DNA from: Dehalococcoidia bacterium
GTDB lineage: Bacteria > Chloroflexota > Dehalococcoidia > Plut-88900
Reading direction: 5' to 3'
NCBI GenBank assembly: GCA_965116945.1
Contig: OZ220734.1
Span: forward strand, 1,906,709-1,970,708
Length of the DNA stretch: 64,000 bases
The position numbers and the translations under genes are program-made. This document shows, one piece after another, positions 4,103 through 27,021 of this stretch. The number at the start of each line of letters is the position of its first letter. Position 1 is the first letter of the stretch. The notes beneath the pieces are model-generated. The model saw nothing but the letters and a program-made list of their open reading frames with translations, was not told the DNA's origin and did not search any database.

Positions 4103-5398
4103 CTAGCTGGGATTGTCTATGACGTATGACGTGCCGACGTGCCCATCGATCTCCATCTGAGCGTATTCCGCAGGGGTGCAGCCGAGGAGGTCTGAGTAGA
4201 CATAACCATTGTGTTCGCCGAGCCTGCATGGCGGCGTTCGTATACCGTTGGGGTGCCCCGACGCCTTCCACATGATTCCCGGGTAAAGGTGTGTCCCGCA
4301 ATCAACTTGGGTTAGCGACTGGAAAAATCCTCGAGAATCGTACTGGGGATCGGAGAAGGCATCCTCATCAAAGATGACCGGGCCCGCCGCGACGCCATGG
4401 GCCTGGAGCAGCGCGGAGATATCGTAAGGGTCATGGTTAAGTGTCCAACTGGTTATATGCTCGCCGATTTCCTCCTGATTGTTGTATCTGCCGGTCACGG
4501 TGGCAAAGCGAGGATTTCGGGCCCAATCCGGAGCCCCGAGGGCCTTTACGAAACCCTCCCACTCATCGTCAGTCCCAATCGCTATGGTCACCCACTTGTC
4601 CTCTCCCTTGCACGGGAAGCAATCGTGGGGTGCGAAAGACCAGTGTCGGTTCCCGATAGCCGATGGGATGCGGCTGTTCATGGCGTATTCGAGGATCTGC
4701 CGAGGCATAAAGGACGCCATGGACTCACATTGTGCCATCTCAATCTGGGTCCCCTTGCCGGTGTGTCTCCGAGCTCTCAGTGCACTCATGATGGCGAATG
4801 CCGCATACACCCCGGCTATCCCGTCTCCGACCACAGTAGTGCTGATTTCCGAAAAGTCGGTGTCCGCGTAGTTTCGGAGCCACGTGTGACCTGTTACCGC
4901 TTCGCCGTGGTTACCCATGGACCGGTAGTTTGTGTATGGCCCGTCAAGTCCGAATCCCGGCATTCTGACCATGATGATGTCAGGACGCTGCTTGCGGACG
5001 GACTCGTAATCAATTTGCAGCTTTGCCATTGTCGTTGGGGTGTTGTTTTCGACAAGTACGTCGCTGATATTGAGAAGGCTATTCAGGACGGCGCGGCCTT
5101 GGGGCCTGGTTAGGTCCATTGTCCCGCTGAGCTTGTTGCGGGCGTGGACGTTGAAGAGTGCCCACCGGTTTGCCCTGTTTTCACCAAGCTTGGAGCCGGG
5201 GTATCCCAGCCACCACATTGCAGGGGGAGGCTCTATTTTCTCGATAGACCAAACCCTGGTTGAAATGGGTGCGATCTGCGTTGATTCGACGCGAATTACC
5301 TCTGCACCCCAGTCGGCGAGCAATTGAGTAGTGTAAGGGCCGGCCCAGATCTGAGTGATGTCCAGCACCCGGATCCCTTCCAACGGCAGCCGACGCAT
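4103..5398 (-). CDS. CoA-transferase family III (CaiB/BaiF-like)
   Basis: 431 aa; N-terminus MRRLPLEGIRVLDITQIWAGPYTTQLLADWGAEVIRVES is the family-III CoA-transferase signature. The stop is 2 nt from the next paralog. Confidence 0.85.
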   Translation of the reverse strand: MRRLPLEGIRVLDITQIWAGPYTTQLLADWGAEVIRVESTQIAPISTRVWSIEKIEPPPAMWWLGYPGSKLGENRANRWALFNVHARNKLSGTMDLTRPQGRAVLNSLLNISDVLVENNTPTTMAKLQIDYESVRKQRPDIIMVRMPGFGLDGPYTNYRSMGNHGEAVTGHTWLRNYADTDFSEISTTVVGDGIAGVYAAFAIMSALRARRHTGKGTQIEMAQCESMASFMPRQILEYAMNSRIPSAIGNRHWSFAPHDCFPCKGEDKWVTIAIGTDDEWEGFVKALGAPDWARNPRFATVTGRYNNQEEIGEHITSWTLNHDPYDISALLQAHGVAAGPVIFDEDAFSDPQYDSRGFFQSLTQVDCGTHLYPGIMWKASGHPNGIRTPPCRLGEHNGYVYSDLLGCTPAEYAQMEIDGHVGTSYVIDNPS

Positions 5399-5400
5399 GT

Positions 5401-6606
5401 CTATATGACCCCCGTTTGTTTCAGTTTGCCCAGCTCTTCGCGGCTGAACCCCAGTTCTCCGCCAAATATCTCATCGTTGTGCTCTCCGAGCGCTGGCGCC
5501 GCTCTGCGTGCCGAGACGCGGGCATGGTCTATTGTGAAAGGTGATCCTGGGTAGGCCGTTAGACCGGTTTCCCCTTCGATTCGGTTCCAAAACCCACGGT
5601 AGGCATAGTGTGGATCGTTAAGAAGGTCGGAAGCGTTGTTTATCGGAGCCGCCATGGCCCTATGGTCCTGCGCTATGCGCCAGGCTTCCTGGTTGTCCTG
5701 GCGGAGGGCCCATTCCATAATACGAGACCGAATCATGTCGAAATTTTCGGACTCCTGTCGGGCGTCGGGGTCCGTGAAGCGAAAGTCGTGGGCCAGCTCG
5801 GGTGCATCGATTAAAGTGGGGAGCTGTTCAGTGGCAGCCGGGGTTGCCGCATCGAAGGCAATGTAACCGTTGCTGGTGGGCAACACTCCACTTAATGCGC
5901 TGATTCCGGCATCAATGCGCCCTCCCCTTTCACCCGTGTATTGGTAAGAGAGGAAGGTGAGGGTGCGGCGATCTATGTTGCCTGCTTGTATTTCCATGAT
6001 GGACATGTCCAGGTGCTCCCCAACCCCCGACACTTCAGCCTCGAAAAACGCAATCATCGTCGCAAGCGCTGTTGCGGTACCGGCCTGGTGAAATACTATG
6101 CCGTCCGCAATGTTGAGTGGAGGATGGTCAGGGGTGCCGGTCACGGCCATGGGGCCGCCCATCCCGTATTGTGTAATTTCGTCAGCCTTATAGTGTTTGT
6201 AGGGTCCGGATTGTCCGAAATTCGTTACCGATGCCATCACCAGCCCGGGATTGAATTTTGATAATTCGTCAAATCCGAGACCCAAAGTGTCCATAACGCC
6301 AGGGTCAAAGCTCTCCACCAGAACTTGGGCTGAAGAGACTAGCTCACTGAATACTCTCCTGCCGGCCTCGCTTCCTATGTTGAGCGTGACGCCGCGCTTA
6401 CCAAGATTCACATACTGGAAAGTTCCGCTTGCCTCATATGCCGGGACCATTCCGGGAAAGGGAGCAAGGCGCCGGGAGGGATCACCGTTCGTTGGGGCTT
6501 CAACCTTTATTACATCGGCGCCCTGGTCGGCCATTAGCCTTGCGCTGAAAGGTCCGGGAACGCCTTTGGAGAGATCGATGACTCGTATACCGTCAAGAGG
6601 CAGCAT
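5401..6606 (-). CDS. CoA-transferase family III (CaiB/BaiF-like), second paralog in operon
   Basis: MLPLDGIRVIDLSKGVPGPFSARLMADQGADVIKVEAP. The track ORF extends to 6804 through an implausible N-terminal extension; the internal ATG at 6606 gives a normal-length protein and a sensible divergent intergenic region. Confidence 0.75.
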   Translation of the reverse strand: MLPLDGIRVIDLSKGVPGPFSARLMADQGADVIKVEAPTNGDPSRRLAPFPGMVPAYEASGTFQYVNLGKRGVTLNIGSEAGRRVFSELVSSAQVLVESFDPGVMDTLGLGFDELSKFNPGLVMASVTNFGQSGPYKHYKADEITQYGMGGPMAVTGTPDHPPLNIADGIVFHQAGTATALATMIAFFEAEVSGVGEHLDMSIMEIQAGNIDRRTLTFLSYQYTGERGGRIDAGISALSGVLPTSNGYIAFDAATPAATEQLPTLIDAPELAHDFRFTDPDARQESENFDMIRSRIMEWALRQDNQEAWRIAQDHRAMAAPINNASDLLNDPHYAYRGFWNRIEGETGLTAYPGSPFTIDHARVSARRAAPALGEHNDEIFGGELGFSREELGKLKQTGVI

Positions 6607-6738
6607 TGCATGCCTTTCACCGGGTGTCGGAAGTGGGTGCAGTATAGCATGAGCCAAGGGTACGATTGATTGACGGAGGAGTCGCGTAGCAATATGATTC
6701 GACAGGCCGATTCGAGTTAGCATTGCCGCAGAGGACAC

Positions 6739-7908
6739 ATGAAATCCAAGGCTGACGTAGTAGTTATAGGTGGCGGTGTGATGGGGTGCAGTATCCTGTT
6801 CCATCTCGCCCGTCGCGGCGTGACCGACACCGTGCTCGTGGAGAAAGAATCACTGGGCGCAGGGTCTACGGGTCGTTCCTCCGGTATTGTTCGCATGCAC
6901 TACTCCAGTGAGGTCAATGCCAGGATCGCTTTTGATAGCCTGGAGACTATCCGGGACTTTCCCGAGATAGTGGGCTACGAATCGGGGTTTGTTAATTCCG
7001 GAGCGATGTTCATGGCGCCGCCAGATACCAAGGAGGACTTCCAACGGAACATCGCAATGCAGCAAGCCCTGGGAATAGACACCAGGATCCTGGACGCCAG
7101 GCAGGCCAAAGAGATTGCTCCTCACCTTGAATTCAGTGAGTCGGACACCATTTGCTTCGAGCCTCAGTCCGGTTACGCCGACCCGCCCAGTGTAGGTCAA
7201 GGCTTTGCCACGGCCGCCCGAGGCATGGGTGCTGAGGTATTTCTGGACACTCCGGCTTCAGACGTGGAAATTGTCAACGACAAGGTAGTTGCGGTGGAGA
7301 CAAGGGCGGGCCGGATTGAGACGGATACTGCTGTGGTTGCCGCCGGTCCGTGGTCTGTCTACCTGATGCGGAAAATCGGTATAGACCTGCCCCTGAAGGC
7401 CACCCGCCACGAGGTGTTTTTCCTCAAACGCAGCCTGGACATAATTCCCGGACACCCGGTAATCGGCGACTTGGTCAACATGGCCTACATGAGGCCGGAA
7501 AGCCCTGACCTCACACTAGTCGGTGACGTGGAGCTGGAGATAGATGCTGACCCAGACAGCTACGATCAGAAGCCCAGCATGGATTACATCGAGAGGATGT
7601 GGGGCCGGGTGGCGAAACGGGCACCCGGCCTGGAACAAGCCGAGTATTTCACGGGATACGCGGGCCTTTACACCAACACCCCTGACGGACACCCTATCAT
7701 TGACAAAGTGGAAGACATAGATGGCCTTTACATCTGCACCGGCTTCAACGGTCACGGGTTCAAGGAGTCGCCGGCCGTAGGCAAGCTGGTTGCCGAGATA
7801 ATCGTGGATGGGGAGGCGACTAGCATTGATATTTCCAGTCTTGGCATGTCCCGCTTTGGCGAAGATTCTCTTCACGCCGTAGGCTATGCATCGAAGGTCA
7901 TGGGATAA
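6739..7908 (+). CDS. FAD-dependent oxidoreductase (sarcosine oxidase beta / DadA family)
   Basis: MKSKADVVVIGGGVMGCSILFHLARRG Rossmann dinucleotide motif; DAO-family length and C-terminus. Confidence 0.85.
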   Translation: MKSKADVVVIGGGVMGCSILFHLARRGVTDTVLVEKESLGAGSTGRSSGIVRMHYSSEVNARIAFDSLETIRDFPEIVGYESGFVNSGAMFMAPPDTKEDFQRNIAMQQALGIDTRILDARQAKEIAPHLEFSESDTICFEPQSGYADPPSVGQGFATAARGMGAEVFLDTPASDVEIVNDKVVAVETRAGRIETDTAVVAAGPWSVYLMRKIGIDLPLKATRHEVFFLKRSLDIIPGHPVIGDLVNMAYMRPESPDLTLVGDVELEIDADPDSYDQKPSMDYIERMWGRVAKRAPGLEQAEYFTGYAGLYTNTPDGHPIIDKVEDIDGLYICTGFNGHGFKESPAVGKLVAEIIVDGEATSIDISSLGMSRFGEDSLHAVGYASKVMG

Positions 7909-7941
7909 ATCCCTGGCTTCACACAACTCAGGAGGACCAAA

Positions 7942-9006
7942 ATGTGCTCAATGAAATACCCCGACTGGCAAGACTTCATGGCTAACAGCTTCGCGGGGCG
8001 CCGGACCTTCCCCTTGATCGCCGACGAACTGCCCACATTCCTGGGCGTTCCCCACGTCACCTCCAAGGTTGAACTCAAGGGTCAGGACGTTGTGATTATC
8101 GGCGCTCCTTACGTGGCAACCGCCACGGACAAGTACGCCGGAGTCGACAAGTGGGAGTGGATATCGGGCCCCAAGAGGGTCAGGCAGCAGTCAGTCAGGT
8201 ATGGATCGGGGTACATCCAGGACTTCGATATCGACGTATTCGAACATCTCAATGTAGTTGACTACGGTGACGCAGACATCCCCGAAGAGGTCAACGTCTC
8301 CCAGACCCCCGAGAACATCCTTAAGGCCCAGGCCTCCGTGGAAGAAAAGGTCGGTGATGTGCTGGAAGCGGGCGGTATCCCGATCGTGATAGGACAGAAT
8401 TCCCCGCTCGGCTCCTTTGCCATTGCCAAGTCCATATCCGAGCATACGGCCGGTCAGGTAGGGTGCGTGAGTCTCGACACCCATTGGGACGCTGCGAAAC
8501 TCGACAGAATGACCAACGATCCACGTATAGCTGGCAGCGGCAGCTGGAAGCACAAGATGTACGAATTCCTCGAAAACATGCATCCCAGCACCCTTGTGGA
8601 AATCGGGGAGCGGGGGATGCTGGAGAAGAAGGACATCGTGCGTCGGTACCTGAGGGAAGGGGCTCGGTTCATCTCCTCGTGGGAGGTGCGAAGCCTGGGT
8701 ATCGAGGGAGTTGTCAACGAACTGGACAGGGCCTATAAGGGCACGGATGGCGTATACGTCCACTTCGACATGGATGTCCTCGGGGGGGCAGGGCCGGCCT
8801 CTGGAGACATTATGGGCGAGCTGGCCGAGCCTATCGGACTAACGGACTACGAGGTCATCCGAATAGCCCATGAAGTAGGGCGTCGGGGGCTCAGTGGTAT
8901 GTCCTTCATCTGCATCCCGCCGGGGTCCGCGGTGATCTACCGGGTGATCGTGTACGTGATCATGTACCTGATGGCGGGGCTGGCGCTGGAGAAGGCGAAG
9001 AAGTAG
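7942..9006 (+). CDS. arginase/agmatinase-family ureohydrolase (guanidino-compound hydrolase candidate)
   Basis: VSLDTHWDA and VHFDMDVLGGAGPASGD Mn-binding motifs of the ureohydrolase fold. The RBS AGGAGGACCAAAATG precedes the start. The C-terminal hydrophobic tail is unusual. Confidence 0.8.
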   Translation: MCSMKYPDWQDFMANSFAGRRTFPLIADELPTFLGVPHVTSKVELKGQDVVIIGAPYVATATDKYAGVDKWEWISGPKRVRQQSVRYGSGYIQDFDIDVFEHLNVVDYGDADIPEEVNVSQTPENILKAQASVEEKVGDVLEAGGIPIVIGQNSPLGSFAIAKSISEHTAGQVGCVSLDTHWDAAKLDRMTNDPRIAGSGSWKHKMYEFLENMHPSTLVEIGERGMLEKKDIVRRYLREGARFISSWEVRSLGIEGVVNELDRAYKGTDGVYVHFDMDVLGGAGPASGDIMGELAEPIGLTDYEVIRIAHEVGRRGLSGMSFICIPPGSAVIYRVIVYVIMYLMAGLALEKAKK

Positions 9007-9012
9007 AGGGGC

Positions 9013-9753
9013 CTAGGCCGCGCCCAGGAATACGCGGGTCAGGATGTCCGTGTCCCGGATAGACTGTGGCGTACCGTCGTGGACTACCCGACCCTTATCC
9101 AGCACGTAGGCCCGATTCACAATGTCGAGCACGCCCTTGATGTTGTGCTCGACTACCATGATGGTGGTCCCCAGGCGTTGGCTGATTTCGGAAACCTTCT
9201 CGAACACTTCTTTCACGATGATCGGCGCAAGCCCGAGGGTCGGCTCGTCCAGGAGTAGCACCTCTGGGTCGGCCATCAGCCCGCGCCCCAGGGCCAACAT
9301 CTGCTGCTGCCCTCCTGACATCTGGCTTGCGTAGTCCTGACGCTTCTCGTGGAGGATGGGAAACAGCTCCATCACGCCGTCAAGGCGGCGGCGCATTTCT
9401 GCCCTGTTATTGAGGTAGAGACAGCCCATCTCCAAGTTCTCTTCGATTGTGAGGTGGGTGAAAACTCGGCGTCCTTGCGGAACGAAAGAGATGCCTTTCT
9501 TTACTATCTCATGGGTCTCGGCCTGCAACTGTTGGTGCTGCCAATAGACCTGCCCCCCGACGACAGGCGCCAGGCGCATGATGGCCTTTAGTACCGTGGA
9601 CTTCCCTGCCCCGTTGGGCCCCATCACGGCCACAACCTCACCCCTGTCCACCCCCAGTGATGCTTCATTCAAAGCGACGACCGCACCATAATGTACAGAG
9701 ATGTCCTCGAGTTCCAGTATCCTCCTTTTACCGTTGTCGCGCATTGTGTTCAT
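9013..9753 (-). CDS. livF: ABC transporter ATP-binding protein (LivF-like)
   Basis: Walker A GPNGAGKST, signature LSGGQQQM, Walker B LLLDEP. Confidence 0.85.
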   Translation of the reverse strand: MNTMRDNGKRRILELEDISVHYGAVVALNEASLGVDRGEVVAVMGPNGAGKSTVLKAIMRLAPVVGGQVYWQHQQLQAETHEIVKKGISFVPQGRRVFTHLTIEENLEMGCLYLNNRAEMRRRLDGVMELFPILHEKRQDYASQMSGGQQQMLALGRGLMADPEVLLLDEPTLGLAPIIVKEVFEKVSEISQRLGTTIMVVEHNIKGVLDIVNRAYVLDKGRVVHDGTPQSIRDTDILTRVFLGAA

Positions 9754-9773
9754 CAGTTCCAGACCTCGCTCAG

Positions 9774-10527
9774 CTAATCGCCCAGATAGGCCTCAATGAC
9801 CTCAGGACGGTTCAGGACGTCTTCGACTTCTCCCTCGGCAAGGAGGGTGCCGCTATCCAACACAATAATGCGGTCGGAAAGCTCCCGAACGATGTCCATA
9901 TTGTGCTCTATGAAGACTATGGTATGGCCCTCGTCCCGCATCTCCTTCATCAGATCCTTTACCCGTTCAAGCATTTGCGGAAACAGACCGGCAAATGGTT
10001 CGTCAAACAGATATACCTTCACATTCATGGCCATCGCCCGCCCGATCTCCAGCAGCTTGCGCTGTCCGTAGGAGAGGTTTTGAGCCAGGGCACCGCGTTT
10101 CTCCCACATCCCCACCTTCTCCAGGATCTCCTGGGCCCTCTTCTTGTAGTCGGGTTTGGACCTTTCAAACAACGCCGGAAGCCATGGCCTGCTGGTGAGG
10201 ACAACCATGATGTTGTCCCACACGGTTATCTGGTCGAACAGGCGGACCTCCTGGAAAGTGCGGGTCAGCCCGTGGTCCGGGGTCTCGAAGGAGTGGACGA
10301 CCTTTAGCCCCGTCCCGTCTATTATCACCATGCCCCCGTCCAGCGGAAGCGTCCCCGACAGCAAGTTTACCAGCGTAGATTTGCCAGATCCGTTAGGACC
10401 GACAATGCTGGTCATCCCTGTTGAGGGGATCGAAATCGAAAGCTCGTCTACAGCCCGTACGGCGCCGAAGTGCTTGGAGACCTTGTCGGTAGACAGGGCT
10501 GAGGAATCTTGAATCTCGGAAGTGGTC
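9774..10527 (-). CDS. livG: ABC transporter ATP-binding protein (LivG-like)
   Basis: GPNGSGKSTLVNLL, LSYGQRKLLE, LFDEPFAG. A TTG start overlapping the livM stop (TTGA) is proposed; the track ORF extends further upstream. Confidence 0.75.
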
Positions 10528-11533
10528 AAAGCTTGTATCTCCCTACCAGGCCCTGGGGTCTGAAGAGCATCAGGACGATCAACAGGAGCCCGAGAATCGC
10601 CCATCTGGCCTGTCCCTCAATCCCGACGGGCAGGCCCGGCACGAAACGCATTCCTTCTTCCAACAGGACGAACACCGTGGCCCCCAGCACCGACCCCCAC
10701 AGACTGGCCAGACCCCCGATTATCACGATAGACACAATTAGTATGGAGTCCAGCAGTGTGAAGGAAGGCGGCTCTATGAACTCGATCAGCCCCGCGAGCA
10801 ATGCGCCCGCCAGGGCGGCAATCATCGCCGAGATTACCCAAACGGCCAGCTTGTAGTAGGTTGCCTTGTAGCCAAACACCTGTATGGCTTGCTCGTCCTC
10901 CCGTATCGCGGTAAGCACCCGGCCAAAGGACGAATTCACAATAAGCCAGCATATTCCCAGCACGACCACAAGGAAGAACATCACGATGACAAGGTACTCC
11001 CAGGGCTCGTCGAAGTCCCAAATCCCGATGGATGGCTTGGCTATTTCCCTGATGCCGAAGGGTCCCCGGGTAACGGGCAGCCAGTTCCTGAACACCCCGA
11101 GCGCGATTACGGCAAAACCGAAAGAAGTCAGCGTAAAGATATCGTCTCTGAATCGGTTAAGCACAAATCCGGCCAGCAGCGCCACGATACCCGTGAGGAT
11201 TATGGCCACGGGCAAGGCGGCAAACCAGCTCATGCCAATGGAAGGTATCACGTCAATGGACTTTGGCGGCTCGATGTCGGGGTTGGTTGTTAGCACGGCG
11301 ATGGTATAGGCCCCGACCCCGAAAAACCCGATATGCGCCACCGAAAGGAGCCCCGTATATCCGATCACCAAGTTCAGACCGATGCCGAGAATGGCGAATA
11401 TGCCAATTATCGTCCCGGTTACGATGGTGAACCGGACCCCCTGGGACAGCATGAATATAAGAGCAGCGCCGATGATGACGATGGTTATCACCATCTCGAA
11501 GTTGTCTTTCAGGAACTTCGTGGTCGGTGTCAT
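10526..11533 (-). CDS. livM: branched-chain-amino-acid-type ABC permease (LivM-like)
   Basis: Polytopic membrane protein ending ...LFRPQGLVGRYKL. Start taken at the internal ATG (MTPTTKFL) to remove the overlap with the upstream permease. Confidence 0.75.
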   Translation of the reverse strand: MTPTTKFLKDNFEMVITIVIIGAALIFMLSQGVRFTIVTGTIIGIFAILGIGLNLVIGYTGLLSVAHIGFFGVGAYTIAVLTTNPDIEPPKSIDVIPSIGMSWFAALPVAIILTGIVALLAGFVLNRFRDDIFTLTSFGFAVIALGVFRNWLPVTRGPFGIREIAKPSIGIWDFDEPWEYLVIVMFFLVVVLGICWLIVNSSFGRVLTAIREDEQAIQVFGYKATYYKLAVWVISAMIAALAGALLAGLIEFIEPPSFTLLDSILIVSIVIIGGLASLWGSVLGATVFVLLEEGMRFVPGLPVGIEGQARWAILGLLLIVLMLFRPQGLVGRYKL

Positions 11534-13067: not shown

Positions 13068-14222
13068 CTATTCCTGTATGGTCGATACGCCGTCGATGAC
13101 CTTGTAGACGCCGAACACGCTCGGGTCCATGTCACCGTTGGAGTCGAACCCGTAGGTCCCGATGGCGCCGGAGTAGGGGTTGTCGCTGTTCACGGCGTAC
13201 AGGCAGTCCCTTATCTCCGCGGTGTTCGTCTCGCTGCCCGCTTCGTCGATGCAGGCCGCCATGATGTGGACCGAGTCGTAGGAGGAGCCTATGTAGTAGT
13301 GGAGCGAGATGGAACCGTGTTTCTCGACGTACTTCTCGGTGAGTTCCGCACCTGCCGGGTTGTACTCGAGATCCTGCGGCACGAGGACTCCTATCACACC
13401 CTCTGCGGCGTCGCCGGCAATGTCCAGCACCGTAGCGGCGTGGCCGGGCTCCACTGCAAACATCTGACCTTCGTAGCCCAGCTCGCGAGCCTGCTTGTAG
13501 AGTGTGCCCTGGGCAAATTCAGACTGGGAAAGCAGGACTATGGCCGGAGGATCGTCAGCGAGGATCCTGGTGAGGCCAGCGCTGAAGTCGGTCTCTTCGG
13601 AGGTGTACCTTTCAGCGGCCAAGATGGACCCACCCAAGGGCTCGTAGTTGTTGGTGAATTCGGTGCGGACGCCTTCAATGTAGTCCGTGGCCTCACCCAT
13701 GACGCCGACTTCGTTGTAGCCCTCGTCAATGATGACCTGGGCCAGGCGCTTCCCTACGTCGGCATCGCTGAACACGTTTCGGAAGATGTAGTCACCGGCC
13801 GTCGAAATAGCTGGGTTGGAGGTCAGACCGGAGAAGACCACGACCTCGTCGTCGTCCACCCGAGACGCAAATCCGAGCATTTCGCCGCTGCAGGAGGGGC
13901 CCAGGATGATGGAAACCTCGTCCACGTCCACCAACTTGGTGTATGCGGTCAGGGCGTCGGTGCCGTTGCACTTCCCGTCTTCGGCAATGATCTCAATCTG
14001 CCGGCCAAGGACACCGCCTGCTTCATTGACTTCGTCAACCGCCAGCTGGATGCCGTTCAAGGCCACATTTCCGTAGGTCTCGCCGGGTCCGGTCAGGGAC
14101 TGGATGACCCCTATGGTTATGGGCTCGTCATCACCTCCGCCGCAGGCAAGGCCCACGATAGCCATAACGGCAAGCAGGCCAAGCACCAGGGCCAAAGGTT
14201 TCTTCTGGATTCGCATACACAC
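13068..14222 (-). CDS. ABC transporter substrate-binding lipoprotein, Leu/Ile/Val-binding protein family (LivK/amide-binding type)
   Basis: Signal peptide plus lipobox LACGGG; ITIGVIQSLTGPGETYGNVALNGIQLAVDEVNEAGGVLGRQIEI is typical of the PBP type-I LivK family. Confidence 0.85.
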   Translation of the reverse strand: MCMRIQKKPLALVLGLLAVMAIVGLACGGGDDEPITIGVIQSLTGPGETYGNVALNGIQLAVDEVNEAGGVLGRQIEIIAEDGKCNGTDALTAYTKLVDVDEVSIILGPSCSGEMLGFASRVDDDEVVVFSGLTSNPAISTAGDYIFRNVFSDADVGKRLAQVIIDEGYNEVGVMGEATDYIEGVRTEFTNNYEPLGGSILAAERYTSEETDFSAGLTRILADDPPAIVLLSQSEFAQGTLYKQARELGYEGQMFAVEPGHAATVLDIAGDAAEGVIGVLVPQDLEYNPAGAELTEKYVEKHGSISLHYYIGSSYDSVHIMAACIDEAGSETNTAEIRDCLYAVNSDNPYSGAIGTYGFDSNGDMDPSVFGVYKVIDGVSTIQE

Positions 14223-16478: not shown

Positions 16479-16501
16479 AAGATTTGGCCTGGGAGGTTAG
16501 A

Positions 16502-19126: not shown

Positions 19127-20335
19127 ATGCCGGGACCTTTAGATGGAATCAGAGTCGTCGAGATGGCCGTTATACACGTCGGGCCTCCCATAGGCTACAT
19201 ATTGGGAGACCTCGGCGCCGAAGTTATCAAGGTTGAGCGACCGGATGGCGGAGACCCCACCCGCTCCCGGGGCACCTTCTGGTTCGATGCCGTTAACCGG
19301 AGCAAGAAGAGCGTAACCCTGGATCTGAAGTCCGAGTCGGGGCGGGAGGTTCTGCACCGGCTAATCGGAAAGGCTGACATCTTCGTTTCCAACTTCCCCC
19401 CGGCCCTCCTTGAGCGCCTGGGCGCGGACTACGAGACGCTATCCGGCATCAACAGCAAACTCGTTTACGGGCAGGTCGGGGCCTGGGGGCCGATGGGCAA
19501 GGACAAAGATCGCCGCGCTTTCGAAGCCCTGGTGCAGGCCCGGAGCGGATTCACCGGCATCGTGAGCGGAGGTCTCGAGGCTGAACCTCTGCTCCTGGAG
19601 GGCGGCCTATTCGACCAGACGACTGCCACCGTGATGACCTATGGCATCCTCGCTGCTCTGGTTAGCCGGGAAAGGACGGGCCGAGGACAGATGGTGCAGG
19701 GCTCACTGCTGGGCAGCGCCATGCACTTCCAGCACGGTGCGGTCAATTACTCGCTGTGGGCGGACAAGTTCCCGGAGCTGAACCTGCCCCCCGGCGAAGG
19801 GTCTCCGTTGCATTCCAGGAATGACAGGACCAAAGCAACCAGTCTTCTGTACAACTGGTACCAGTGTGCCGACCGCCGGTGGATCATGTTCTGCGAACCC
19901 GACCCAGACCGATGGTGGCCGGAATTTTGCCGAGCCATTGGAGCCGAGGGTCTCGCTTCGACCTCGCCGCAAGACGAGAACTGGGCAGGCCTGAGGGGAC
20001 AGATTGACGAGATATTCGCAAAGAAAACCCTCGCCGAGTGGCTGGAGACCCTAAAGGACGCGGGCCTGGAGATGGCCTACTCACCGGTCAACTCTACGGC
20101 GGAGGTGGCCGCCGATCCCCAGGCTCGGGCCAACAACTACGTCGTTGATGTCGACCATCCAACAAGGGGAAAGATGACCTCGGCGGGCGTGCCGCTGGCG
20201 TTTTCAGGAACGCCGGTGGGCCGGGTGTCGGCGGCGCCGGGTCTCGGAGAGCACAATGAAGATGTTGCGACCGGTGTCGGGGGATTCAGCGCTGAGGAGC
20301 TCGCCCGTTTGAAGGAAGATGGGGCATTCGGATAG
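19127..20335 (+). CDS. CoA-transferase family III (CaiB/BaiF-like), third paralog
   Basis: MPGPLDGIRVVEMAVIHVGPPIGYILGDLGAEVIKVERP. Confidence 0.85.
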   Translation: MPGPLDGIRVVEMAVIHVGPPIGYILGDLGAEVIKVERPDGGDPTRSRGTFWFDAVNRSKKSVTLDLKSESGREVLHRLIGKADIFVSNFPPALLERLGADYETLSGINSKLVYGQVGAWGPMGKDKDRRAFEALVQARSGFTGIVSGGLEAEPLLLEGGLFDQTTATVMTYGILAALVSRERTGRGQMVQGSLLGSAMHFQHGAVNYSLWADKFPELNLPPGEGSPLHSRNDRTKATSLLYNWYQCADRRWIMFCEPDPDRWWPEFCRAIGAEGLASTSPQDENWAGLRGQIDEIFAKKTLAEWLETLKDAGLEMAYSPVNSTAEVAADPQARANNYVVDVDHPTRGKMTSAGVPLAFSGTPVGRVSAAPGLGEHNEDVATGVGGFSAEELARLKEDGAFG

Positions 20336-20398
20336 ACTGGATGCAAGTAATTGTGGAAGGATCTGGTTGAGCGGGGATTTGAAAGGAGCGCGGGCCTG

Positions 20399-21475
20399 AT
20401 GGACTACAAGCTGATTTCGGCGGACTCCCACGTGAACGAACCGTTGAGCATGTGGCAGGAAAGAATGCCTGCGGAATTCCGGCACAAAGCGCCCCACAGG
20501 AAGGTTGTTGACGGCAAACTCCTCGAGATTCGGGACGGCATGCGCCCGAGGCGGGTGGAGTTGGGCACCGAGGAAATGGGCAAGGACGACATGCTCCGGG
20601 AGGATGCGGTTGAGGATGGTTGGGACGTGAAGGTCAGGATCGAGGCCCAGGACACGGACGGGGTGGCCGGAGAAGTGATTTACCCCAACTACGGCCTGGA
20701 ACTCACAGCCTCCCCCGACCCTGGATTCCAGCTCGCCGCGGCCCGCACTTACAACGATTGGGCCGCAGAGCTCTTTGGAGCGTACAGGGACAGGTTCGCT
20801 CTGGCAGCGTTGATTCCCGTGCTGGATATCCAAGGGGCGGTTGACGAGGTGTATCGGACTGCAAAAATGGGCCTCGGCTCAATGTTTCTGCCCAGCAAGC
20901 CCACCGTCCCCTACAACCGACCCGAGTACGATCCCCTCTGGGCCGCGATAGAAGAAGTAGGCGTGCCGGCGAACTTCCACATCAGCAGTGGCCGGGACCC
21001 GCGTATCGAAAGAGGGGCGGGTGGAGCAATTATCAACTACGTTATGGGTGCGCTGGTGGACGGGATTGACGTGGTTACCTATTTGTGCTCCTCCGGCGTG
21101 CTGATGAAGCACCCGAACATGAAATTCGTGATCGTGGAGTCGGGAATCGGGTGGATAGCCTGGAACATGCTCGCCATGGATGAAGGCGCCGACAAGCACC
21201 ACATGTATGTCCGACCCAAGCTGGACATGAAGCCCAGCGATTACTTCCGACGCCAGGGATACGCCACCTTTGGAGAGGACGCGGTGGGCCTGTCCAACAT
21301 CTCCTTCACGGGCGCCGGGTGCTTGCTGTGGGGCAACGATTACCCCCATCACGAAGGCACGTGGCCCCACTCCCGGGCGGCGATAGCGCGGCAGTTTGTC
21401 GGGGTGGAGGAGGAGCACAAGGAAATGATCGTCAGCTCCAATGCGGGGTCGCTGTACGGGTTCAGCACGAACTAA
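20399..21475 (+). CDS. amidohydrolase-2 family metal-dependent hydrolase (ACMSD-like TIM barrel)
   Basis: MDYKLISADSHVNEP... His-x-His metal site. AAAGGAG lies 9 nt upstream of this ATG; the track ORF starts 48 nt earlier. Confidence 0.8.
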   Translation: MDYKLISADSHVNEPLSMWQERMPAEFRHKAPHRKVVDGKLLEIRDGMRPRRVELGTEEMGKDDMLREDAVEDGWDVKVRIEAQDTDGVAGEVIYPNYGLELTASPDPGFQLAAARTYNDWAAELFGAYRDRFALAALIPVLDIQGAVDEVYRTAKMGLGSMFLPSKPTVPYNRPEYDPLWAAIEEVGVPANFHISSGRDPRIERGAGGAIINYVMGALVDGIDVVTYLCSSGVLMKHPNMKFVIVESGIGWIAWNMLAMDEGADKHHMYVRPKLDMKPSDYFRRQGYATFGEDAVGLSNISFTGAGCLLWGNDYPHHEGTWPHSRAAIARQFVGVEEEHKEMIVSSNAGSLYGFSTN

Positions 21476-21528: not shown

Positions 21529-22506
21529 ATGGCACAAAACGACATGTACCGAGGGCCGAGGGTCTGGCCGTTCAGCGGGATCCCGTCCTTCTTGAGGTCG
21601 AAGATCGTTACCGATCTAGATGAGTTGGAAGCCGACATTGCGGTGATGGGCGCCCCTACCGACGAGGGCTCTCCCTTCATGGGTGGAGCGCGTTTCGCGC
21701 CGCAGAGCATCCGGCAGCACTCCTTGAGGTTCGGGGAGGAGGGGTACTACAACTACTCGGAGGACAAGGAGTACCTGGAATACGAGATGAAGAACGGGCG
21801 CATCGCGGATGTCGGGGATGCGCCGATAATTCCGACCAACGCTGAAGACTCTTTCTACAACATCACCGCCATGACCAAGAAAGTGTTGGAAAAGGGAGCA
21901 ATGCCCGTAGTCCTGGGCGGAGACCATGCAGTCAGCTTCCCCGTTGTACGCGCCTTCGAAGAAGAGCCGCTATATGTGTTCCACTTCGATGCGCACATCG
22001 ACTACACACCGTTTATGCACGGTTTTGAATACACGAACGGGCATGCCTTCAGGCACATAAACGCCATGGCAAACGTCGATACCATCTTCCAGGTCGGGAT
22101 TCGAAGCCTGCGCAACAAAAAGGACTACATTGAAGATTCTTTCAAAGACGGGAACAGAATCGTCAGCATGGAAGAGTTCCGGGACGTCGGGCAAAAGGAC
22201 CTGGTGGAAGAACTGCCCTCGAATGCCAAGGTCTACGTCTCAATAGATATCGACGTATTGGACATGAGCCTGGTTCCGGGTTGCGTGTCGGCGGAGCCCA
22301 ACGGCATGCATTACCAGGAGCTGGAAAAGACACTGAAGGTAATCGCCGAACATACGGATGTCGTTGGCTTTGACCTCTGCGAGGTCAATCCACAGCTGGA
22401 CGTCGGGACAGGGGTGACATCGTACCTGGCGGCCCACACCGTCATGGAATTCCTGGGAGACATCTGCGACCAGCCCAGGTGGAGAGAGAGTAGGCACAAC
22501 CGCTAG
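21529..22506 (+). CDS. arginase/agmatinase-family ureohydrolase (second paralog)
   Basis: VVLGGDHAVSFPVV, FHFDAHIDY and SIDIDVLD Mn-binding motifs. Confidence 0.85.
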   Translation: MAQNDMYRGPRVWPFSGIPSFLRSKIVTDLDELEADIAVMGAPTDEGSPFMGGARFAPQSIRQHSLRFGEEGYYNYSEDKEYLEYEMKNGRIADVGDAPIIPTNAEDSFYNITAMTKKVLEKGAMPVVLGGDHAVSFPVVRAFEEEPLYVFHFDAHIDYTPFMHGFEYTNGHAFRHINAMANVDTIFQVGIRSLRNKKDYIEDSFKDGNRIVSMEEFRDVGQKDLVEELPSNAKVYVSIDIDVLDMSLVPGCVSAEPNGMHYQELEKTLKVIAEHTDVVGFDLCEVNPQLDVGTGVTSYLAAHTVMEFLGDICDQPRWRESRHNR

Positions 22507-22577: not shown

Positions 22578-23732
22578 CTACTTTATGACCAGGTCCCGAG
22601 GGAAGTCCGATAGGACCTCGGGGCCCGACTCTGTCACCAGAACCGTGTCCGAGTAGATCACGCCGATTTCGCCGTCAATCTTAACGTCAGGGACCAGGTG
22701 GAACACAAGGCCGGGCTCCAGGGGTGTCTCGTCGTTCTCAATGAGGCTCATGATGCGGCCCTCGCCCCAGTCGGGTGGGAAGCCGATGCCTATCAGGTAA
22801 CCGCATCGGTGCTGGAAGTGCGCGCTGAGACCCAGGCTCTCCATGTAGCCCCGGGCAGCCCTGTCTACGGAAGCAGATGACGCCCCAGGCTTCATAGCCT
22901 CGATGGCCCGTTCCAGGGCGCCGCGGGAGGCGTCGGCGAGGCGCTTGGCCTGGTCCGATGGCTCCCCTACTACAACGCCCCTCGACAGGCAGGCGTTGTA
23001 ACGCATGTAGCTGCCGCCCATCTCCAGGTACAGGAGGTCACCGCGCTTGATGGGGGTGCGTTCCCACGTGGTGAACCCGAGACCTCCTCGGGCGCCGGTG
23101 GCCACCAGCATTGCGTGACCCAGGTATTCGCTGCCTGCTTTGATCGATTCGTAATAGGCTGCTGCTGCGGCGTCGTTCTCGGTGGCGCCCTCTTGAATGG
23201 CGTCGATACAGCCCTGCATGGCGGCCTTGCAAGTTTGGGCTGCCTCCCGGATGTAGGCAATTTCCTGGGGGGACTTTACCCGACGCACCTTCTCGACCAG
23301 CCCTGCGGTCTCCACGAAGTTGGTAGAGCCTGCGCTGTCTACGAGCGCCTTGTGGTGGCCTATGTTGTAGAACCAGGCCTGCTCGTCATACCCGACGCTC
23401 TTGCCAATCAGCCCCGCCGAGTCCAGGGCCTTCCTGGTTGTCTCGATGGGGTTCTGAATGTCGGTCCAGCCCTGTACGTCGTCCACCCAGGAGCTGTGCC
23501 TGACCATGCTGGAGACCAGGTCCCTTACAACAATGGTTGCACCTTTGGAAGTAAGGATCAGGGCCGTATAGGTGAAATATCCGATGCTGTGGTAGCCGGT
23601 GAGGTAGAAGATGTTCTCGGGAGAATGGATCATCAGTCCGTCGACGCCCTTCTCCTCCATGGCTGCAAGGACACTTTCGACGCGTGACTGATACTCTTTG
23701 GCCTCAAAGGGAAGGTTTGGGTTGTGTTGCAA
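22578..23732 (-). CDS. creatinase / Xaa-Pro aminopeptidase family protein (M24 pita-bread fold with creatinase-type N-domain)
   Basis: N-terminal creatinase_N-like region (GVDGLMIHSPENIFYLTGYHSIGYF) and an M24-fold C-terminal half. Confidence 0.8.
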   Translation of the reverse strand: MQHNPNLPFEAKEYQSRVESVLAAMEEKGVDGLMIHSPENIFYLTGYHSIGYFTYTALILTSKGATIVVRDLVSSMVRHSSWVDDVQGWTDIQNPIETTRKALDSAGLIGKSVGYDEQAWFYNIGHHKALVDSAGSTNFVETAGLVEKVRRVKSPQEIAYIREAAQTCKAAMQGCIDAIQEGATENDAAAAAYYESIKAGSEYLGHAMLVATGARGGLGFTTWERTPIKRGDLLYLEMGGSYMRYNACLSRGVVVGEPSDQAKRLADASRGALERAIEAMKPGASSASVDRAARGYMESLGLSAHFQHRCGYLIGIGFPPDWGEGRIMSLIENDETPLEPGLVFHLVPDVKIDGEIGVIYSDTVLVTESGPEVLSDFPRDLVIK

Positions 23733-23940: not shown

Positions 23941-23996
23941 GTCCGGACGTAAATCACCATGCCAGCTGATGATTGGACACTGAGATAGGAGGGGCT

Positions 23997-25316
23997 ATGA
24001 AACGTACATTCCCAGTTCTCAGACGCAAAATAAAGAAGAGTTGGGCCCTGCTTGCCGTAGCAGGGTTGATGGCCCTTTTGCTGGTCTTGGCGGCTTGTGG
24101 AGAGTCTGCAACCGCTACCCCGGAACCCGCCGATGAGCCGGACGAACCCGAAACCACGATGGATGATGACGCCGCCATGGACGATGAAGATGCTATGGTG
24201 AGCCACATCAGGCCCAAGTCTGAGTGGACAGCAGAGAATCCGGCTACCCTGGAAGAGATTGAAGCTGAGCTGACAAAGTACCGCGGCAAAAGCTTCACTC
24301 AGGCCAGCTGGGGCGGTGCTTGGCAGGCCGCTATCCGTCAGGGACACATGATCCCCTTCGCCGAAAAGTTCGGAATACAGGTTGTCGAAGACAGCCCAGT
24401 CGAGCTAGCCAAGATCAAGGCCATGGTTGAAACGGGCAACGTGACCTGGGACGTCGTGGACTTCGGCACCAGGTGGGTCTACACCCTCGGCGAGCCCGGT
24501 TTCCTTGCAGAACTCGACCCCGCGATCCACAACGGTTACCTTTCCGGAAACCCCGAAATCACGCAGACTCCCTGGAGTGGGGGCGCGGGTGTTCTCTGGT
24601 CCACCGGAATGGCATACACGTTGGATGAATATCCCGACCACGAGGGCGCTCCCAAAGACTGGGCGGACTTCTGGGATGTTGATGGCATCGACGGCCACAG
24701 GTCCTTGGGCAACAGGCCCAACGAGAACGTGATCTTTGCCCAGATGGCCCTCAACCCCAACGTATTCGACACAGTCGAAGGCAGGAACAGCATAGCCAGC
24801 CTGGACGATGCCCAGGTAGACCAGTCCTTCGCTAAGCTCGAGGAAATCAAGGACCACCTCGTCAACTGGTGGCACACCGGCACCGACTGCCCCCAGGGAC
24901 TGTTGTCGGGAGACTACACCATCTGCTCAGCCTGGAATGGCCGGATTTGGAACGCGCAGCAGGAAGATGATAGTTCTCCGCTGTACTACTGTTACGAGTG
25001 CGGGCACATCAACCAGACGGGCGTCTACTCGATCCCCGAGGGTTCTCCCAACCAGGAACTGGCCGAGCTTTACATGGCTTGGATGGGATACCCGGAGAAC
25101 GCGGTCCAGGTGTCCAGCTACATCACCTACGGACCCCTCCACGCCGAGGCTGTAAAACTGGCCGCCGATGTGATCGACCCGGCAATCCTCAACGACCTTC
25201 CCACTTCGCCCATTGCCCTGGAAAAGGTTATCATCATGGATGAGTACTGGCTGGGCACCAACCTGGATGCCGGTCAAATGCTGATCGAAAGATTCCAGGC
25301 CCTTCAGCAGCAGTAA
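23997..25316 (+). CDS. ABC-type solute-binding lipoprotein, PotD/PotF (polyamine/agmatine) family
   Basis: Lipobox LAACGES followed by an acidic low-complexity linker (ATATPEPADEPDEPETTMDDDAAMDDEDAM). The PotD-like core has SWGGAWQ, WDVVD, DWADFWD and SAWNGRIWN. The start is set at the ATG preceded by TAGGAGGGG. Confidence 0.8.
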   Translation: MKRTFPVLRRKIKKSWALLAVAGLMALLLVLAACGESATATPEPADEPDEPETTMDDDAAMDDEDAMVSHIRPKSEWTAENPATLEEIEAELTKYRGKSFTQASWGGAWQAAIRQGHMIPFAEKFGIQVVEDSPVELAKIKAMVETGNVTWDVVDFGTRWVYTLGEPGFLAELDPAIHNGYLSGNPEITQTPWSGGAGVLWSTGMAYTLDEYPDHEGAPKDWADFWDVDGIDGHRSLGNRPNENVIFAQMALNPNVFDTVEGRNSIASLDDAQVDQSFAKLEEIKDHLVNWWHTGTDCPQGLLSGDYTICSAWNGRIWNAQQEDDSSPLYYCYECGHINQTGVYSIPEGSPNQELAELYMAWMGYPENAVQVSSYITYGPLHAEAVKLAADVIDPAILNDLPTSPIALEKVIIMDEYWLGTNLDAGQMLIERFQALQQQ

Positions 25317-25356
25317 TCGACACGCAGACCAAAGGAAAGACAGAAAGCTGGATAAC

Positions 25357-25384
25357 GGCGGAGGAGGCATTTGCCTCCTCCGCC
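25357..25384 (+). terminator. hairpin between the tandem binding-protein genes
   Basis: GGCGGAGGAGGC-attt-GCCTCCTCCGCC is a perfect 12-bp stem; no clear U-tract follows. Confidence 0.4.
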
Positions 25385-25580
25385 CCAGTCCGTTAAGAAC
25401 AGCAAGCAGAATCACGCATATTGCAAGGTCAGAAAGCTATAGTACGCAGTATTTTCAGAGCATGAGGACAAACATACCTACCCTTGAGGAGAACGCCTAT
25501 GTAATTAACGTCCCCCCGGCACACGAGCGACGAACGCACCTATAGTTCGAGACTCGTAAAGACTCTAGATAGGAGAGCTT

Positions 25581-26969
25581 ATGCAATTTGGAAAGAAAAG
25601 AATCAAGATGAGCCGGCGACAGGGCATCCTGGGCGCGCTCGGTCTGGTCTTGGTGCTTATGCTCGTTGTAGCAGCTTGTGGCGAATCTGCCACGGCAACA
25701 CCCGAGCCTGAGCCCACTGCCATGATGGAAGAGCCCACCCCCGAACCGGCAATGGAGGAGCCTACCGCGACGGCAGTGCCCGGCGAGGTAGTTGAGGCCA
25801 CCAAGGCTCCCGAGCCCGATGATGACGATGCAATGGAGCCTTCAGGCCCCCGCCCCATCTCCGAGTGGACAGCGGATGAACCCGCTACCTTTGAAGAGAT
25901 CGAAGCCGCCCTTGAAGGCTTCAGAGGCTCCAGCCTTAACGTAGTATCCTGGGGTGGCGCCTACCAGGCAGCCCAGCGCCAGGCCTACTTCCTTCCCTTC
26001 CAGGAGCGCTTCGGAATCCAGCTGGTTGAAGACAGCCCCGTGGAGTACGCCAAGATTCGTTCCATGGTCGAGACCGGGAACGTGACCTGGGACGTAGTTG
26101 ACTCCGGTACCAGGGCCGTTTACCAGCTTGGCCCGACGGGCGACCTCGAAGAGCTCACCCCTGGCATCCACAACCGCTACCTCCCCTTCTTCCCCCAGGT
26201 AGCAGTTACTCCCTGGAGCGGTGGTGGCGGAGTCCTCTGGTCCACTGGTCTTGCTTACCAGAAGAACAAGGTTGACGAGCTCTGGGGCGGCAACGCTCCC
26301 GAGGACTGGACCGCCTTCTGGGACGTCGAGAAATTCCCCGGCACCAGGTGGATGGGACGCAGGGTGAACGAGAATATCTTCTTCGCCCACTTCAACCGCA
26401 CGCCTGAGATCCTGGACACCGTCGAGGGTCGGACCGCGATAGCGAAGCTTACCGACGAGCAGGTCGACCAGTCCTTCGAACAGCTCGAGGCCATTAAGCC
26501 TCACATCCAGTTCTGGTGGACCGGTGGTACGGACTGCCCGCAGGCCTTGATAACCGACCAGGCTGACATGTGCACGGCTTGGAACGGTCGAATTTGGAAC
26601 GCCCAGCAGGAAGATGGCGGCGACAACCTCCACTACTGCTTCGAGTGTGGACACCTGAACCAGACCGACGTGTTCTACATCCCGAAGGGCTCTCCCAACA
26701 AGGAACTGGCAGAACTGTTCATTTCCTGGACAGCCGAGCCACACATCAACGTAGAGATGATCAAGTACATCACCTACGGCCCCCTGAACCTTCAGGCCCT
26801 GCCGCTGGTTAACACTGACGTAGTCGACCAGCTGACCATTGACAACCTCCCCACCTCCCCGACCGCCCTTGAGAAGGCAGTCGTAGTGGACGAGGTCTGG
26901 TTGGGCACGAACCTCGACGCCTTGGCTGAGAGGATGGAGGCATTCCTCGCAGACGTGGCCGACAGTTAA
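25581..26969 (+). CDS. ABC-type solute-binding lipoprotein, PotD/PotF family (tandem paralog)
   Basis: Same architecture as the upstream paralog: lipobox VAACGESATATPEP plus a longer Pro/Glu/Thr/Ala-rich linker. RBS AGGAGAGCTTATG. Confidence 0.8.
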   Translation: MQFGKKRIKMSRRQGILGALGLVLVLMLVVAACGESATATPEPEPTAMMEEPTPEPAMEEPTATAVPGEVVEATKAPEPDDDDAMEPSGPRPISEWTADEPATFEEIEAALEGFRGSSLNVVSWGGAYQAAQRQAYFLPFQERFGIQLVEDSPVEYAKIRSMVETGNVTWDVVDSGTRAVYQLGPTGDLEELTPGIHNRYLPFFPQVAVTPWSGGGGVLWSTGLAYQKNKVDELWGGNAPEDWTAFWDVEKFPGTRWMGRRVNENIFFAHFNRTPEILDTVEGRTAIAKLTDEQVDQSFEQLEAIKPHIQFWWTGGTDCPQALITDQADMCTAWNGRIWNAQQEDGGDNLHYCFECGHLNQTDVFYIPKGSPNKELAELFISWTAEPHINVEMIKYITYGPLNLQALPLVNTDVVDQLTIDNLPTSPTALEKAVVVDEVWLGTNLDALAERMEAFLADVADS

Positions 26970-27021
26970 ACGTTGAGCACGAAGTGAGCCTCGCACGGTC
27001 ATTGACCGAACGAGGGAAAAG

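Follow-up and report, generated by a model that had tools for sequence, protein, structure and literature searches.

A block of catabolic and uptake genes in a Dehalococcoidia genome, part of which plausibly serves guanidino compound catabolism

Layout of the block and conservation of module C

The window analyzed here is a stretch of 64,000 nucleotides from a Dehalococcoidia bacterium (contig OZ220734.1), and all coordinates follow its numbering. Positions 4103-27000 form a block of 21 consecutive catabolic and transport genes without a housekeeping gene between them, as judged from the open reading frame (ORF) listing and Pfam; the remaining 37 kb hold mainly housekeeping genes. An earlier note, made from the letters alone, read this block as one supercluster for the degradation of guanidino, amide or polyamine substrates. 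Families were assigned to the window ORFs with Pfam scans and NCBIfam models at their curated cut-offs, and transcription units were inferred from intergenic gaps and strands. Every family named in the earlier note was found in place, including the tandem CoA-transferases and the Liv-type importer, but its inventory overlooked lutABC (14342-17239) in the center of the block. We count four strand switches and no fewer than seven transcription units, and describe the genes as four modules.

Module A, 4.1-9.0 kb: a pair of CoA-transferase genes, with a DAO-family FAD oxidase and an atypical protein of arginase fold (Arg_div) in divergent orientation
Module B, 9.0-14.2 kb: HAAT-type ABC importer
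Module C, 14.3-22.5 kb: amidase, CoA-transferase, amidohydrolase-related dinuclear oxygenase (ARO) and ureohydrolase (Arg_agm) genes transcribed away from lutCBA
Module D, 22.6-27.0 kb: a DoeA-like M24 hydrolase and, in divergent orientation, a pair of lipoprotein binding proteins

The genes of module C are as follows.

14342-15061, minus strand: LutC, LUD domain (PF02589, 115 bits)
15030-16478, minus strand: LutB iron-sulfur subunit with LUD, Fer4_8 and LutB_C domains (TIGR00273, 492 bits; cut-off 445)
16502-17239, minus strand: LutA, two CCG domains (PF02754, 124 bits)
17665-19065, plus strand: amidase signature (AS) amidase, 466 aa (PF01425, 360 bits), with a 425-bp spacer to the divergent lutA
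19127-20335, plus strand: CoA-transferase 3, family III, 402 aa (PF02515, 324 bits)
20351-21475 (likely start 20399), plus strand: ARO related to PtmU3, Amidohydro_2 domain
21529-22506, plus strand: Arg_agm, 325 aa (PF00491, 222 bits)

LutB is the sole protein of the block that exceeds an NCBIfam equivalog cut-off. The amidase carries both the GGSSGG signature and the Ser-cisSer-Lys triad (K79, GGSSGGSG at 152-159, S178 and GSDGGGSIR), and its top NCBIfam match, PRK06169, reaches 398 bits against a cut-off of 506. The product of 20351-21475 had been called an amidohydrolase-2. The defining marks of AROs are D-x-H near the N terminus together with, near the C terminus, a D-x-P-H-x-D/E motif that PF04909 hydrolases and decarboxylases lack (PMC13154177). 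This protein has both (D25-S-H27 and D330-Y-P-H333-H-E335), its H210 and E263 align to PtmU3, and its nearest solved relatives are PtmU3 (6omp; 220 bits, E 7e-64) and DitZ (107 bits). It is thus a predicted oxygenase and not an amide hydrolase. CoA-transferase 3 ends 63 bp upstream of its likely start, and PtmU3 takes CoA-ligated substrates (PMC7782822).

Arg_agm keeps all six ligands of the binuclear metal site, and its GGDHA, DAHID and SIDIDVLD motifs are invariant in 20 family members. It remains below the cut-offs of agmatinase (TIGR01230, 148 bits; 174.3), arginase (RocF, 71; 228) and formimidoylglutamase (HutG, 140; 229). Among structures in the PDB it matches Deinococcus radiodurans agmatinase 1wog with 163 bits, GpuA with 132, proclavaminate amidinohydrolase (PAH) with 129 and GbuA with 111. 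A biosynthetic agmatinase (SpeB) was considered and rejected on account of the sub-cut-off score and the catabolic surroundings.

Neighborhoods were compared in two surveys, one anchored on Arg_div (every window protein searched against 80 genome loci) and one anchored on Arg_agm (genome relatives and 83 metagenome loci). Module C recurs in four Dehalococcoidia lineages, listed here with the identity of their Arg_agm.

L083-85 (87%): entire right half the same, plus a third SBP_bac_8 gene
L176 (70%): katG-lutCBA divergent from a gap, Arg and ARO
L086-88 (68%): lutCBA divergent from amidase-Arg-ARO; NIPSNAP
L177 (67%): DAO, adenosine-deaminase-family gene, lutCBA divergent from amidase (66%)-CoA-transferase (57%)-Arg-three AROs-PAD_porph, Aminotran_3, two NIPSNAP genes

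Amidase orthologs (66-67% identical) occupy the same position in L177 and L086-88, as does the CoA-transferase 3 ortholog in L177. All PF04909 neighbors in the four lineages have the ARO motifs; whether the oxygenase precedes or follows the ureohydrolase varies by lineage, and the linkage persists. The PAD_porph gene of L177 belongs to the agmatine-deiminase family and Aminotran_3 denotes an omega-aminotransferase. Genes of 107 aa with PF07978 stand at a syntenic place, downstream of module C, in three lineages (L083-85, L086-88 and L177). An orthologous DAO lies nearby in two module C lineages, and DAO orthologs close to ureohydrolase homologs were seen in L177 (64%, truncated, with 95 residues available) and in L119 and L123. 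Because the linkage survives changes of gene order in four lineages, and because L177 adds two enzymes of guanidino or omega-amino type, the comparison argues for functional coupling of module C, and of this module only, with the DAO oxidase as a recurrent neighbor. In L085, one of three otherwise syntenic contigs of the same sample, two ORFs stand in place of the amidase gene and two in place of the M24 gene (5022-6316 and 11513-12668), which may reflect pseudogenes or long-read indel errors.

The earlier note had proposed conservation of the neighborhood as a check. It holds for module C at 67-87% identity, but the full 23 kb recurs only in near-identical genomes. The order katG, CoA-transferases 1 and 2 divergent from DAO-Arg_div, Liv and Lut is confined to eight Dehalococcoidia metagenome-assembled genomes (MAGs) with 95-98% identical Arg_div, and at the other ~70 Arg_div loci no window gene is consistently adjoining. 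Since katG abuts lutC in L176, the region from CoA-transferase 1 to LivK (4.1-14.2 kb) acts as an insertion/deletion unit of its own.

At the 83 metagenome loci, the commonest neighbors of Arg_agm homologs are hydrolase-type PF04909 genes (15 loci, typically with a 4-bp stop-codon overlap) and ABC ATPases (14), followed by short-chain dehydrogenases/reductases (10), DUF1989 genes (9) and class IV aminotransferases (8); carboxyguanidine deiminase belongs to DUF1989 (PMC11271267). In L089 the Arg_agm homolog directly follows a complete PotD-type ABC transporter, and two M24/Creatinase_N genes and DAO genes are present as well. In L108 an M24 gene adjoins two arginase-family genes, and in L119 and L123 a 389-aa DAO, 49% identical to that of the window, lies 2.3 kb upstream of the Arg_agm homolog. 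Elsewhere, Arg_agm homologs are also found beside AS amidases. Two soil metagenome contigs hold arginase-family paralogs in a row on one strand, six in L094 (3745-10960) and three in L127 (1513-4528), with the Arg_agm homolog last.

Modules A, B and D and the flanking genes

Module A consists of four genes.

4103-5398, minus strand: CoA-transferase 1, family III, 431 aa (PF02515, 321 bits)
5401-6804 (likely start 6606, giving 401 aa), minus strand: CoA-transferase 2, family III (PF02515, 300 bits)
6739-7908, plus strand: DAO-family FAD oxidoreductase of sarcosine-oxidase/proline-dehydrogenase-beta type, 389 aa (PF01266, 235 bits)
7942-9006, plus strand: Arg_div, 354 aa (PF00491, only 90 bits), 33 bp downstream of the DAO gene

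CoA-transferases 1 and 2 stand in tandem with a gap of 2 bp. In the ORF of the second, the PF02515 domain begins at residue 70, and the L001 ortholog has 401 aa. All three CoA-transferases of the block match PF02515 over its full length (profile 1-366, 300-324 bits); they are mutually 23-28% identical, with copy 1 at 23-25% to the others. The top NCBIfam match of copy 1 is succinate-glutarate CoA-transferase with 199 bits (cut-off 750). The DAO protein finds its top PDB match in 1y56_B (181 bits) and attains no NCBIfam cut-off, the sarcosine-oxidase models all lying far below theirs. Module A would probably link the oxidation of a secondary or N-methyl amine with cleavage of an amidine or guanidine.

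Arg_div departs from the canonical enzymes. In its family the GGDHS motif invariably reads GQNSP, so the first metal-binding His is lost to Ser; five of the six ligands remain, and DTHWD and HFDMD are invariant. Arg_div thus lacks the full six-ligand set of a competent arginase-superfamily member, while its fold is confirmed. The AlphaFold (AF2) model (pLDDT 92, pTM 0.93) finds its nearest structures, by Foldseek, in both metformin hydrolase subunits, Nitrospira guanidinase and Synechocystis guanidine hydrolase, with query-normalized TM scores of ~0.73-0.77. The protein is 26% identical to Arg_agm and scores 34.5 bits with TIGR01230 (cut-off 174.3), 27 with RocF (228) and 44 with HutG (229). 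The earlier count of two agmatinase-family ureohydrolases stands insofar as both carry PF00491 and Arg_agm has its six ligands, but Arg_div has lost a His and both miss the agmatinase cut-off. Neither is a plain arginase or formimidoylglutamase, an assignment that would have spoken against the earlier reading.

Over 700 homologs, 66-98% identical to Arg_div, are spread over Dehalococcoidia, Alpha- and Gammaproteobacteria, Rokubacteria and further groups. Only one full-length representative (63%) is present in a library clustered at 50% identity, so that the family as a whole spans 63-98%, and the next full-length relatives are at most 39% identical; the wider clade at 30-39% has GGN(A/S) in place of GGDHS. 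A second Arg_div paralog, ~68-69% identical to the window copy, is present at another locus in OY764147.1, OY760104.1, OZ241876.1, OZ240219.1 and CBDCTF010000007.1. Arginase-fold subunits with degenerate metal sites have a precedent in metformin hydrolase, whose pseudoenzyme MetCb lost five of six ligands (PMC11271267). A role as metal-free partner of Arg_agm, in the manner of MetCaCb, was rejected: the two genes are 12.5 kb apart, five of six ligands are kept and such pairing is rare. Among the other 78 genome loci, a further arginase-fold gene within 10 kb of Arg_div was found only in L017 and L033, and directly beside it only in L017. In that dehalococcoidial locus (8735-12800), the sole MetCaCb-like pairing seen, Arg_div (75%) is flanked by an arginase-family gene (32% to Arg_agm) and an AS amidase (36%).

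In Alphaproteobacteria, Arg_div is divergent from a CoA-transferase and a glutathione S-transferase (GST). Its operon there includes a xanthine-permease-like transporter and a Rieske oxygenase with a weak top match to GbcA, glycine-betaine monooxygenase. L174 and L175 (6667-12071) and L002 (7775-15009) combine Arg_div with the xanthine-permease-like transporter, GbcA-like Rieske oxygenases, a formyl-CoA-transferase-like gene and GST; L002 additionally has a guanine/8-oxoguanine-deaminase-like amidohydrolase nearby. These surroundings hint at a nucleobase-related or N-methylated substrate. Arg_div could be the founding member of an uncharacterized, constrained family of active amidine or guanidine hydrolases with a remodeled metal site, acting on a widespread marine N-methylated or heterocyclic guanidine such as creatine, methylguanidine or a purine-derived compound. 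We consider this quite unlikely as a specific proposal, and it would explain the linkage to partners of N-demethylase type, namely DAO here and the GbcA-like Rieske oxygenase with the xanthine-permease-like transporter in Alphaproteobacteria. As a highly conserved arginase-fold family with an altered metal site and no characterized member, Arg_div is the most novel element of the block.

Module B is a Liv/HAAT importer.

9013-9753, minus strand: ABC ATPase, LivF/UrtE-like (PF00005; UrtE 218 and LivF 215 bits, both sub-cut-off)
9774-10604, minus strand: ABC ATPase, LivG-like (PF00005 and BCA_ABC_TP_C)
10526-11638, minus strand: permease, LivM-like (PF02653, 143 bits)
11530-12933, minus strand: permease, LivH-like (PF02653, 110 bits)
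13068-14222, minus strand: Peripla_BP_6 lipoprotein, LivK-like (PF13458, 184 bits; lipobox GLAC|GGG)

The LivK-like protein scores 129 bits with the LivJ-type model as against 48 with UrtA. A urea transporter was rejected as a reading of this cassette, given that UrtE, UrtC and UrtA are all sub-cut-off and no better than the Liv models. LivM is represented by a variant only 60% identical in genomes that are otherwise 97-98% identical, and LivH variants in close relatives are ~41% identical, which suggests that the Liv cassette is exchanged between strains. In L001 and L003-L010 (~11-20 kb in locus coordinates; Arg_div 95-98%), different or duplicated LivM, LivH and LivK copies show 40-62% identity as against 81-96%, and in L001 a lutC remnant is split by an additional Liv cassette.

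Module D contains three genes.

22578-23732, minus strand: DoeA-like M24 hydrolase, 384 aa (Creatinase_N and Peptidase_M24)
23973-25316, plus strand: SBP_bac_8 lipoprotein a (PF13416, 102 bits; lipobox LAAC|GES followed by an acidic linker)
25581-26969, plus strand: SBP_bac_8 lipoprotein b (PF13416, 103 bits)

The M24 protein had been called creatinase-like. It aligns end to end with DoeA (6twj) at 180 bits and shares the RCGY...PPDWGE motifs with it, as compared with 38-45 bits for the creatinases 1chm, 7yto and 1kp0 and 104-125 bits for the best prolidases and aminopeptidases P; DoeA-like is the better description. With the two DoeA equivalog models it reaches 269 bits (DoeA_2, cut-off 575) and 198 bits (cut-off 613), and doeB, doeC and doeD are absent from the window. 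Lipoproteins a and b are tandem duplicates (56% identical), and all three binding proteins of the block, including the LivK-like one, have lipoprotein signal peptides. The label PotD/PotF-like does not fit a and b: the PotF model gives 26 bits against a cut-off of 636, their nearest PDB entries are 4i1d, the 4-aminobutyrate (GABA) binders Pf622 and Atu4243 and opine binders, and no permease or ATPase adjoins them. The probable function of module D is to take up a cyclic amidine, or a compound related to one, and to open it.

The following features flank the block.

692-2812: katG, left neighbor of the block
27082-27405, minus strand: putative NIPSNAP-like ORF of 107 aa from the ORF listing, named after the PF07978 domain of the syntenic genes in relatives
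27472-27547, minus strand: tRNA-Arg(TCT), by ARAGORN and Rfam, right border of the block

Between katG and CoA-transferase 1, 1.3 kb (2812-4103) are without a credible ORF. This spacer includes a near-perfect palindrome with 36-nt arms (3773-3845), and its length ranges from ~200 to 1700 bp among near-identical genomes. Rightward beyond tRNA-Arg follow DUF6391 and then the housekeeping genes PCMT, gatB, cysS, ispDF, ksgA, ftsY and others. Base composition is even along the window. A genomic island at tRNA-Arg was considered and rejected, as composition is uniform, an integrase is absent from the block and the layout is common to relatives. Isolated catabolic genes amid the housekeeping genes comprise a GbcA-like Rieske oxygenase (32752-33969; 216 bits, cut-off 670), a second Amidohydro_2 gene (38884-39726), a nitronate monooxygenase (47419-48693) and an Amino_oxidase flavoprotein (55855-57396). 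A large bacterial signal recognition particle RNA lies at 38590-38856 (186 bits), and rRNA genes are absent from the window.

Candidate roles of the block

The balance of evidence puts at about evens the reading that 4103-27000 is a real, unbroken block for catabolism and uptake, a mosaic of four modules rather than one pathway, and that module C degrades a guanidino-substituted carboxylic acid or amide. Family knowledge suggests the following chemistry for module C. The amidase would free a carboxylate, from which CoA-transferase 3 would form a thioester without spending ATP. The PtmU3-like diiron oxygenase would then hydroxylate a C-H bond of the CoA ester, the binuclear-metal ureohydrolase Arg_agm would release urea, and LutABC may oxidize the resulting 2-hydroxy acid. 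The conserved divergent placement of lutABC hints at a role beyond lactate. More broadly, part of the block plausibly serves to break down guanidino or amidino compounds. On this point the earlier note is borne out in part for modules C and D, through metal ligands and the neighbors of homologs, but not for the block as a unit.

Arginine is degraded by a known route through 4-guanidinobutyramide and 4-guanidinobutyrate to GABA and urea. In marginolactone biosynthesis, 4-guanidinobutyryl-CoA is reported to be used (PMC4737276). These two routes show that guanidino intermediates of this sort occur in nature, though nothing ties them to the block.

Several observations weigh against this reading of module C and the block. 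Since only LutB exceeds its equivalog cut-off, the substrate is not assignable, and lutABC may be a lactate-oxidation operon placed here by chance. The block holds no transcription regulator, urease or urea carboxylase and no reductase or ferredoxin partner for the oxygenase; riboswitches, including those of guanidine type, are absent across 2.7-27.7 kb (gathering threshold or E<=1), and a cognate permease or ATPase for the SBP_bac_8 proteins (BPD_transp_1) is absent from the window. Two of the four module C lineages lack CoA-transferase 3 and one lacks the amidase, and Arg_agm homologs at 62-66% identity (L119, L178 and L179) have differing contexts. All four lineages are Dehalococcoidia, so the synteny may be partly inherited and not selected. 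Finally, family III CoA-transferases are a known generic paralog expansion in SAR202, whose genomes carry dozens of CaiB/BaiF CoA-transferases along with other expanded families (Landry et al. 2017, PMC5395668).

These expansions (PMC5395668) lend some weight to a chance juxtaposition of unrelated catabolic paralogs with no common substrate class even in module C, which we regard as unlikely, if deserving of attention. The three CoA-transferases are indeed only 23-28% identical to each other, and the surroundings of both ureohydrolase families vary widely. Nevertheless, the linkage of module C outlasts rearrangements in four lineages, the Arg_agm family has a PF04909 gene as immediate neighbor in all four ARO lineages and at 15 of 83 metagenome loci, and the two additional enzymes of L177 act on guanidino or omega-amino groups. 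The SAR202 literature makes no mention of arginase-family or amidase expansions.

The earlier idea of one integrated supercluster, which would import and fully degrade a single guanidino, N-methyl or polyamine substrate class, has in its favor that 21 of 21 genes are contiguous and catabolic, that the whole arrangement is kept in at least eight genomes and three metagenome contigs, and that the distant L089 again combines ureohydrolase, M24, DAO and SBP_bac_8 genes. However, the whole layout is shared only by near-identical genomes (95-98% and 87% protein identity), the left 10 kb are separable as seen in L176, the Liv cassette is swapped between strains, and the ~70 other loci give Arg_div no consistent neighbor from the window. 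Taken with the lack of a regulator and with four strand switches among at least seven transcription units, this makes a single pathway improbable.

Alternatively, CoA-transferase 3 and the oxygenase might degrade alicyclic or terpenoid carboxylic acids, akin to carboxyl-rich alicyclic molecules (CRAM) in dissolved organic matter, with the ureohydrolases and the amidase unrelated to them. The substrates that PtmU3 and DitZ hydroxylate are diterpenoids, which PtmU3 takes in CoA-ligated form; a CoA-transferase is directly upstream of the oxygenase here; and SAR202 has been hypothesized to degrade recalcitrant organic matter (PMC5395668). Yet the oxygenase stands beside the ureohydrolase in two lineages that have no CoA-transferase, AROs also use small polar molecules (for example, AibH1H2 and SfbO), and beta-oxidation or ring-cleavage genes are absent from the block, which leaves this reading distinctly improbable. 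Classical catabolism of creatine/creatinine or ectoine through the M24 hydrolase and a sarcosine-type oxidase is very improbable: the Creatinase_N domain, the likeness to DoeA and the monomeric sarcosine oxidase length of the DAO protein, which matches sarcosine-oxidase models, are outweighed by the creatinase, DoeA and sarcosine-oxidase scores given above, the lack of doeB, doeC, doeD and any ehu/uehABC-type transporter, and the 15 kb that separate the M24 and DAO genes in different modules.

The mosaic reading, with guanidino chemistry in module C, would matter for several reasons. Guanidino and amidino compounds (guanidino acids, creatine, ectoine-like solutes and guanidine) are nitrogen-rich marine dissolved organic matter, potentially used by the abundant deep-ocean Dehalococcoidia/SAR202. 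The nearest genomes are Dehalococcoidia MAGs, and SAR202-labeled MAGs carry homologs at 65-69% identity; the SAR202-type host suggested earlier is therefore plausible, but the attribution is unproven. If the reading is true, an amidase, an ATP-independent CoA-transferase, a PtmU3-type oxygenase and a ureohydrolase would make up an oxygen-dependent, CoA-linked route outside the textbook gbu, gpu, spe, doe and creatinase pathways. If neither module C nor Arg_div works on guanidino compounds, the block is another SAR202 set of orphan catabolic genes.

Comparison with known systems

Arg_agm shares its fold and six metal ligands with GbuA and GpuA of Pseudomonas aeruginosa and with SpeB, but is only ~30-38% identical and roughly equidistant from agmatinase, GpuA, PAH and GbuA. 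The gbuA/gpuA and speAB loci also differ in context from that of Arg_agm, with its amidase, CoA-transferase, ARO and lutABC. The closest folds and sequences to Arg_div are GdmH and MfmAB/MetCaCb, to which it is only 21-26% identical. Whereas MetCb lost five of its six ligands, Arg_div keeps five; unlike GdmH and MetCaCb, it is without a paired arginase-fold gene, L017 excepted, and has no nearby Ni-chaperone genes.

The oxygenase resembles PtmU3 and DitZ in its ARO motifs, in His210 and Glu263 and in having a CoA-activating enzyme upstream. It differs in its catabolic context beside a ureohydrolase, as opposed to diterpenoid biosynthesis or degradation, in that the CoA comes from a transferase and not a ligase, and in that no partner reductase is evident. 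The lut genes correspond to the LutABC lactate complex in all three subunits, in their usual operon and in a LutB above its cut-off, but in four lineages they are divergent from an amidase/ureohydrolase/oxygenase operon. For the M24 protein, DoeA/EutD is matched in end-to-end alignment and in non-canonical active-site motifs; the differences are a score under half the NCBIfam cut-off, the missing doeBCD genes and the pairing with two SBP_bac_8 lipoproteins. Three divergent family III CoA-transferases within 16 kb of a Dehalococcoidia genome recall the CaiB/BaiF expansions of SAR202, except that one copy here has defined partners in a conserved operon. What is new about the locus is how known enzyme families are wired together; it is not a new kind of system.

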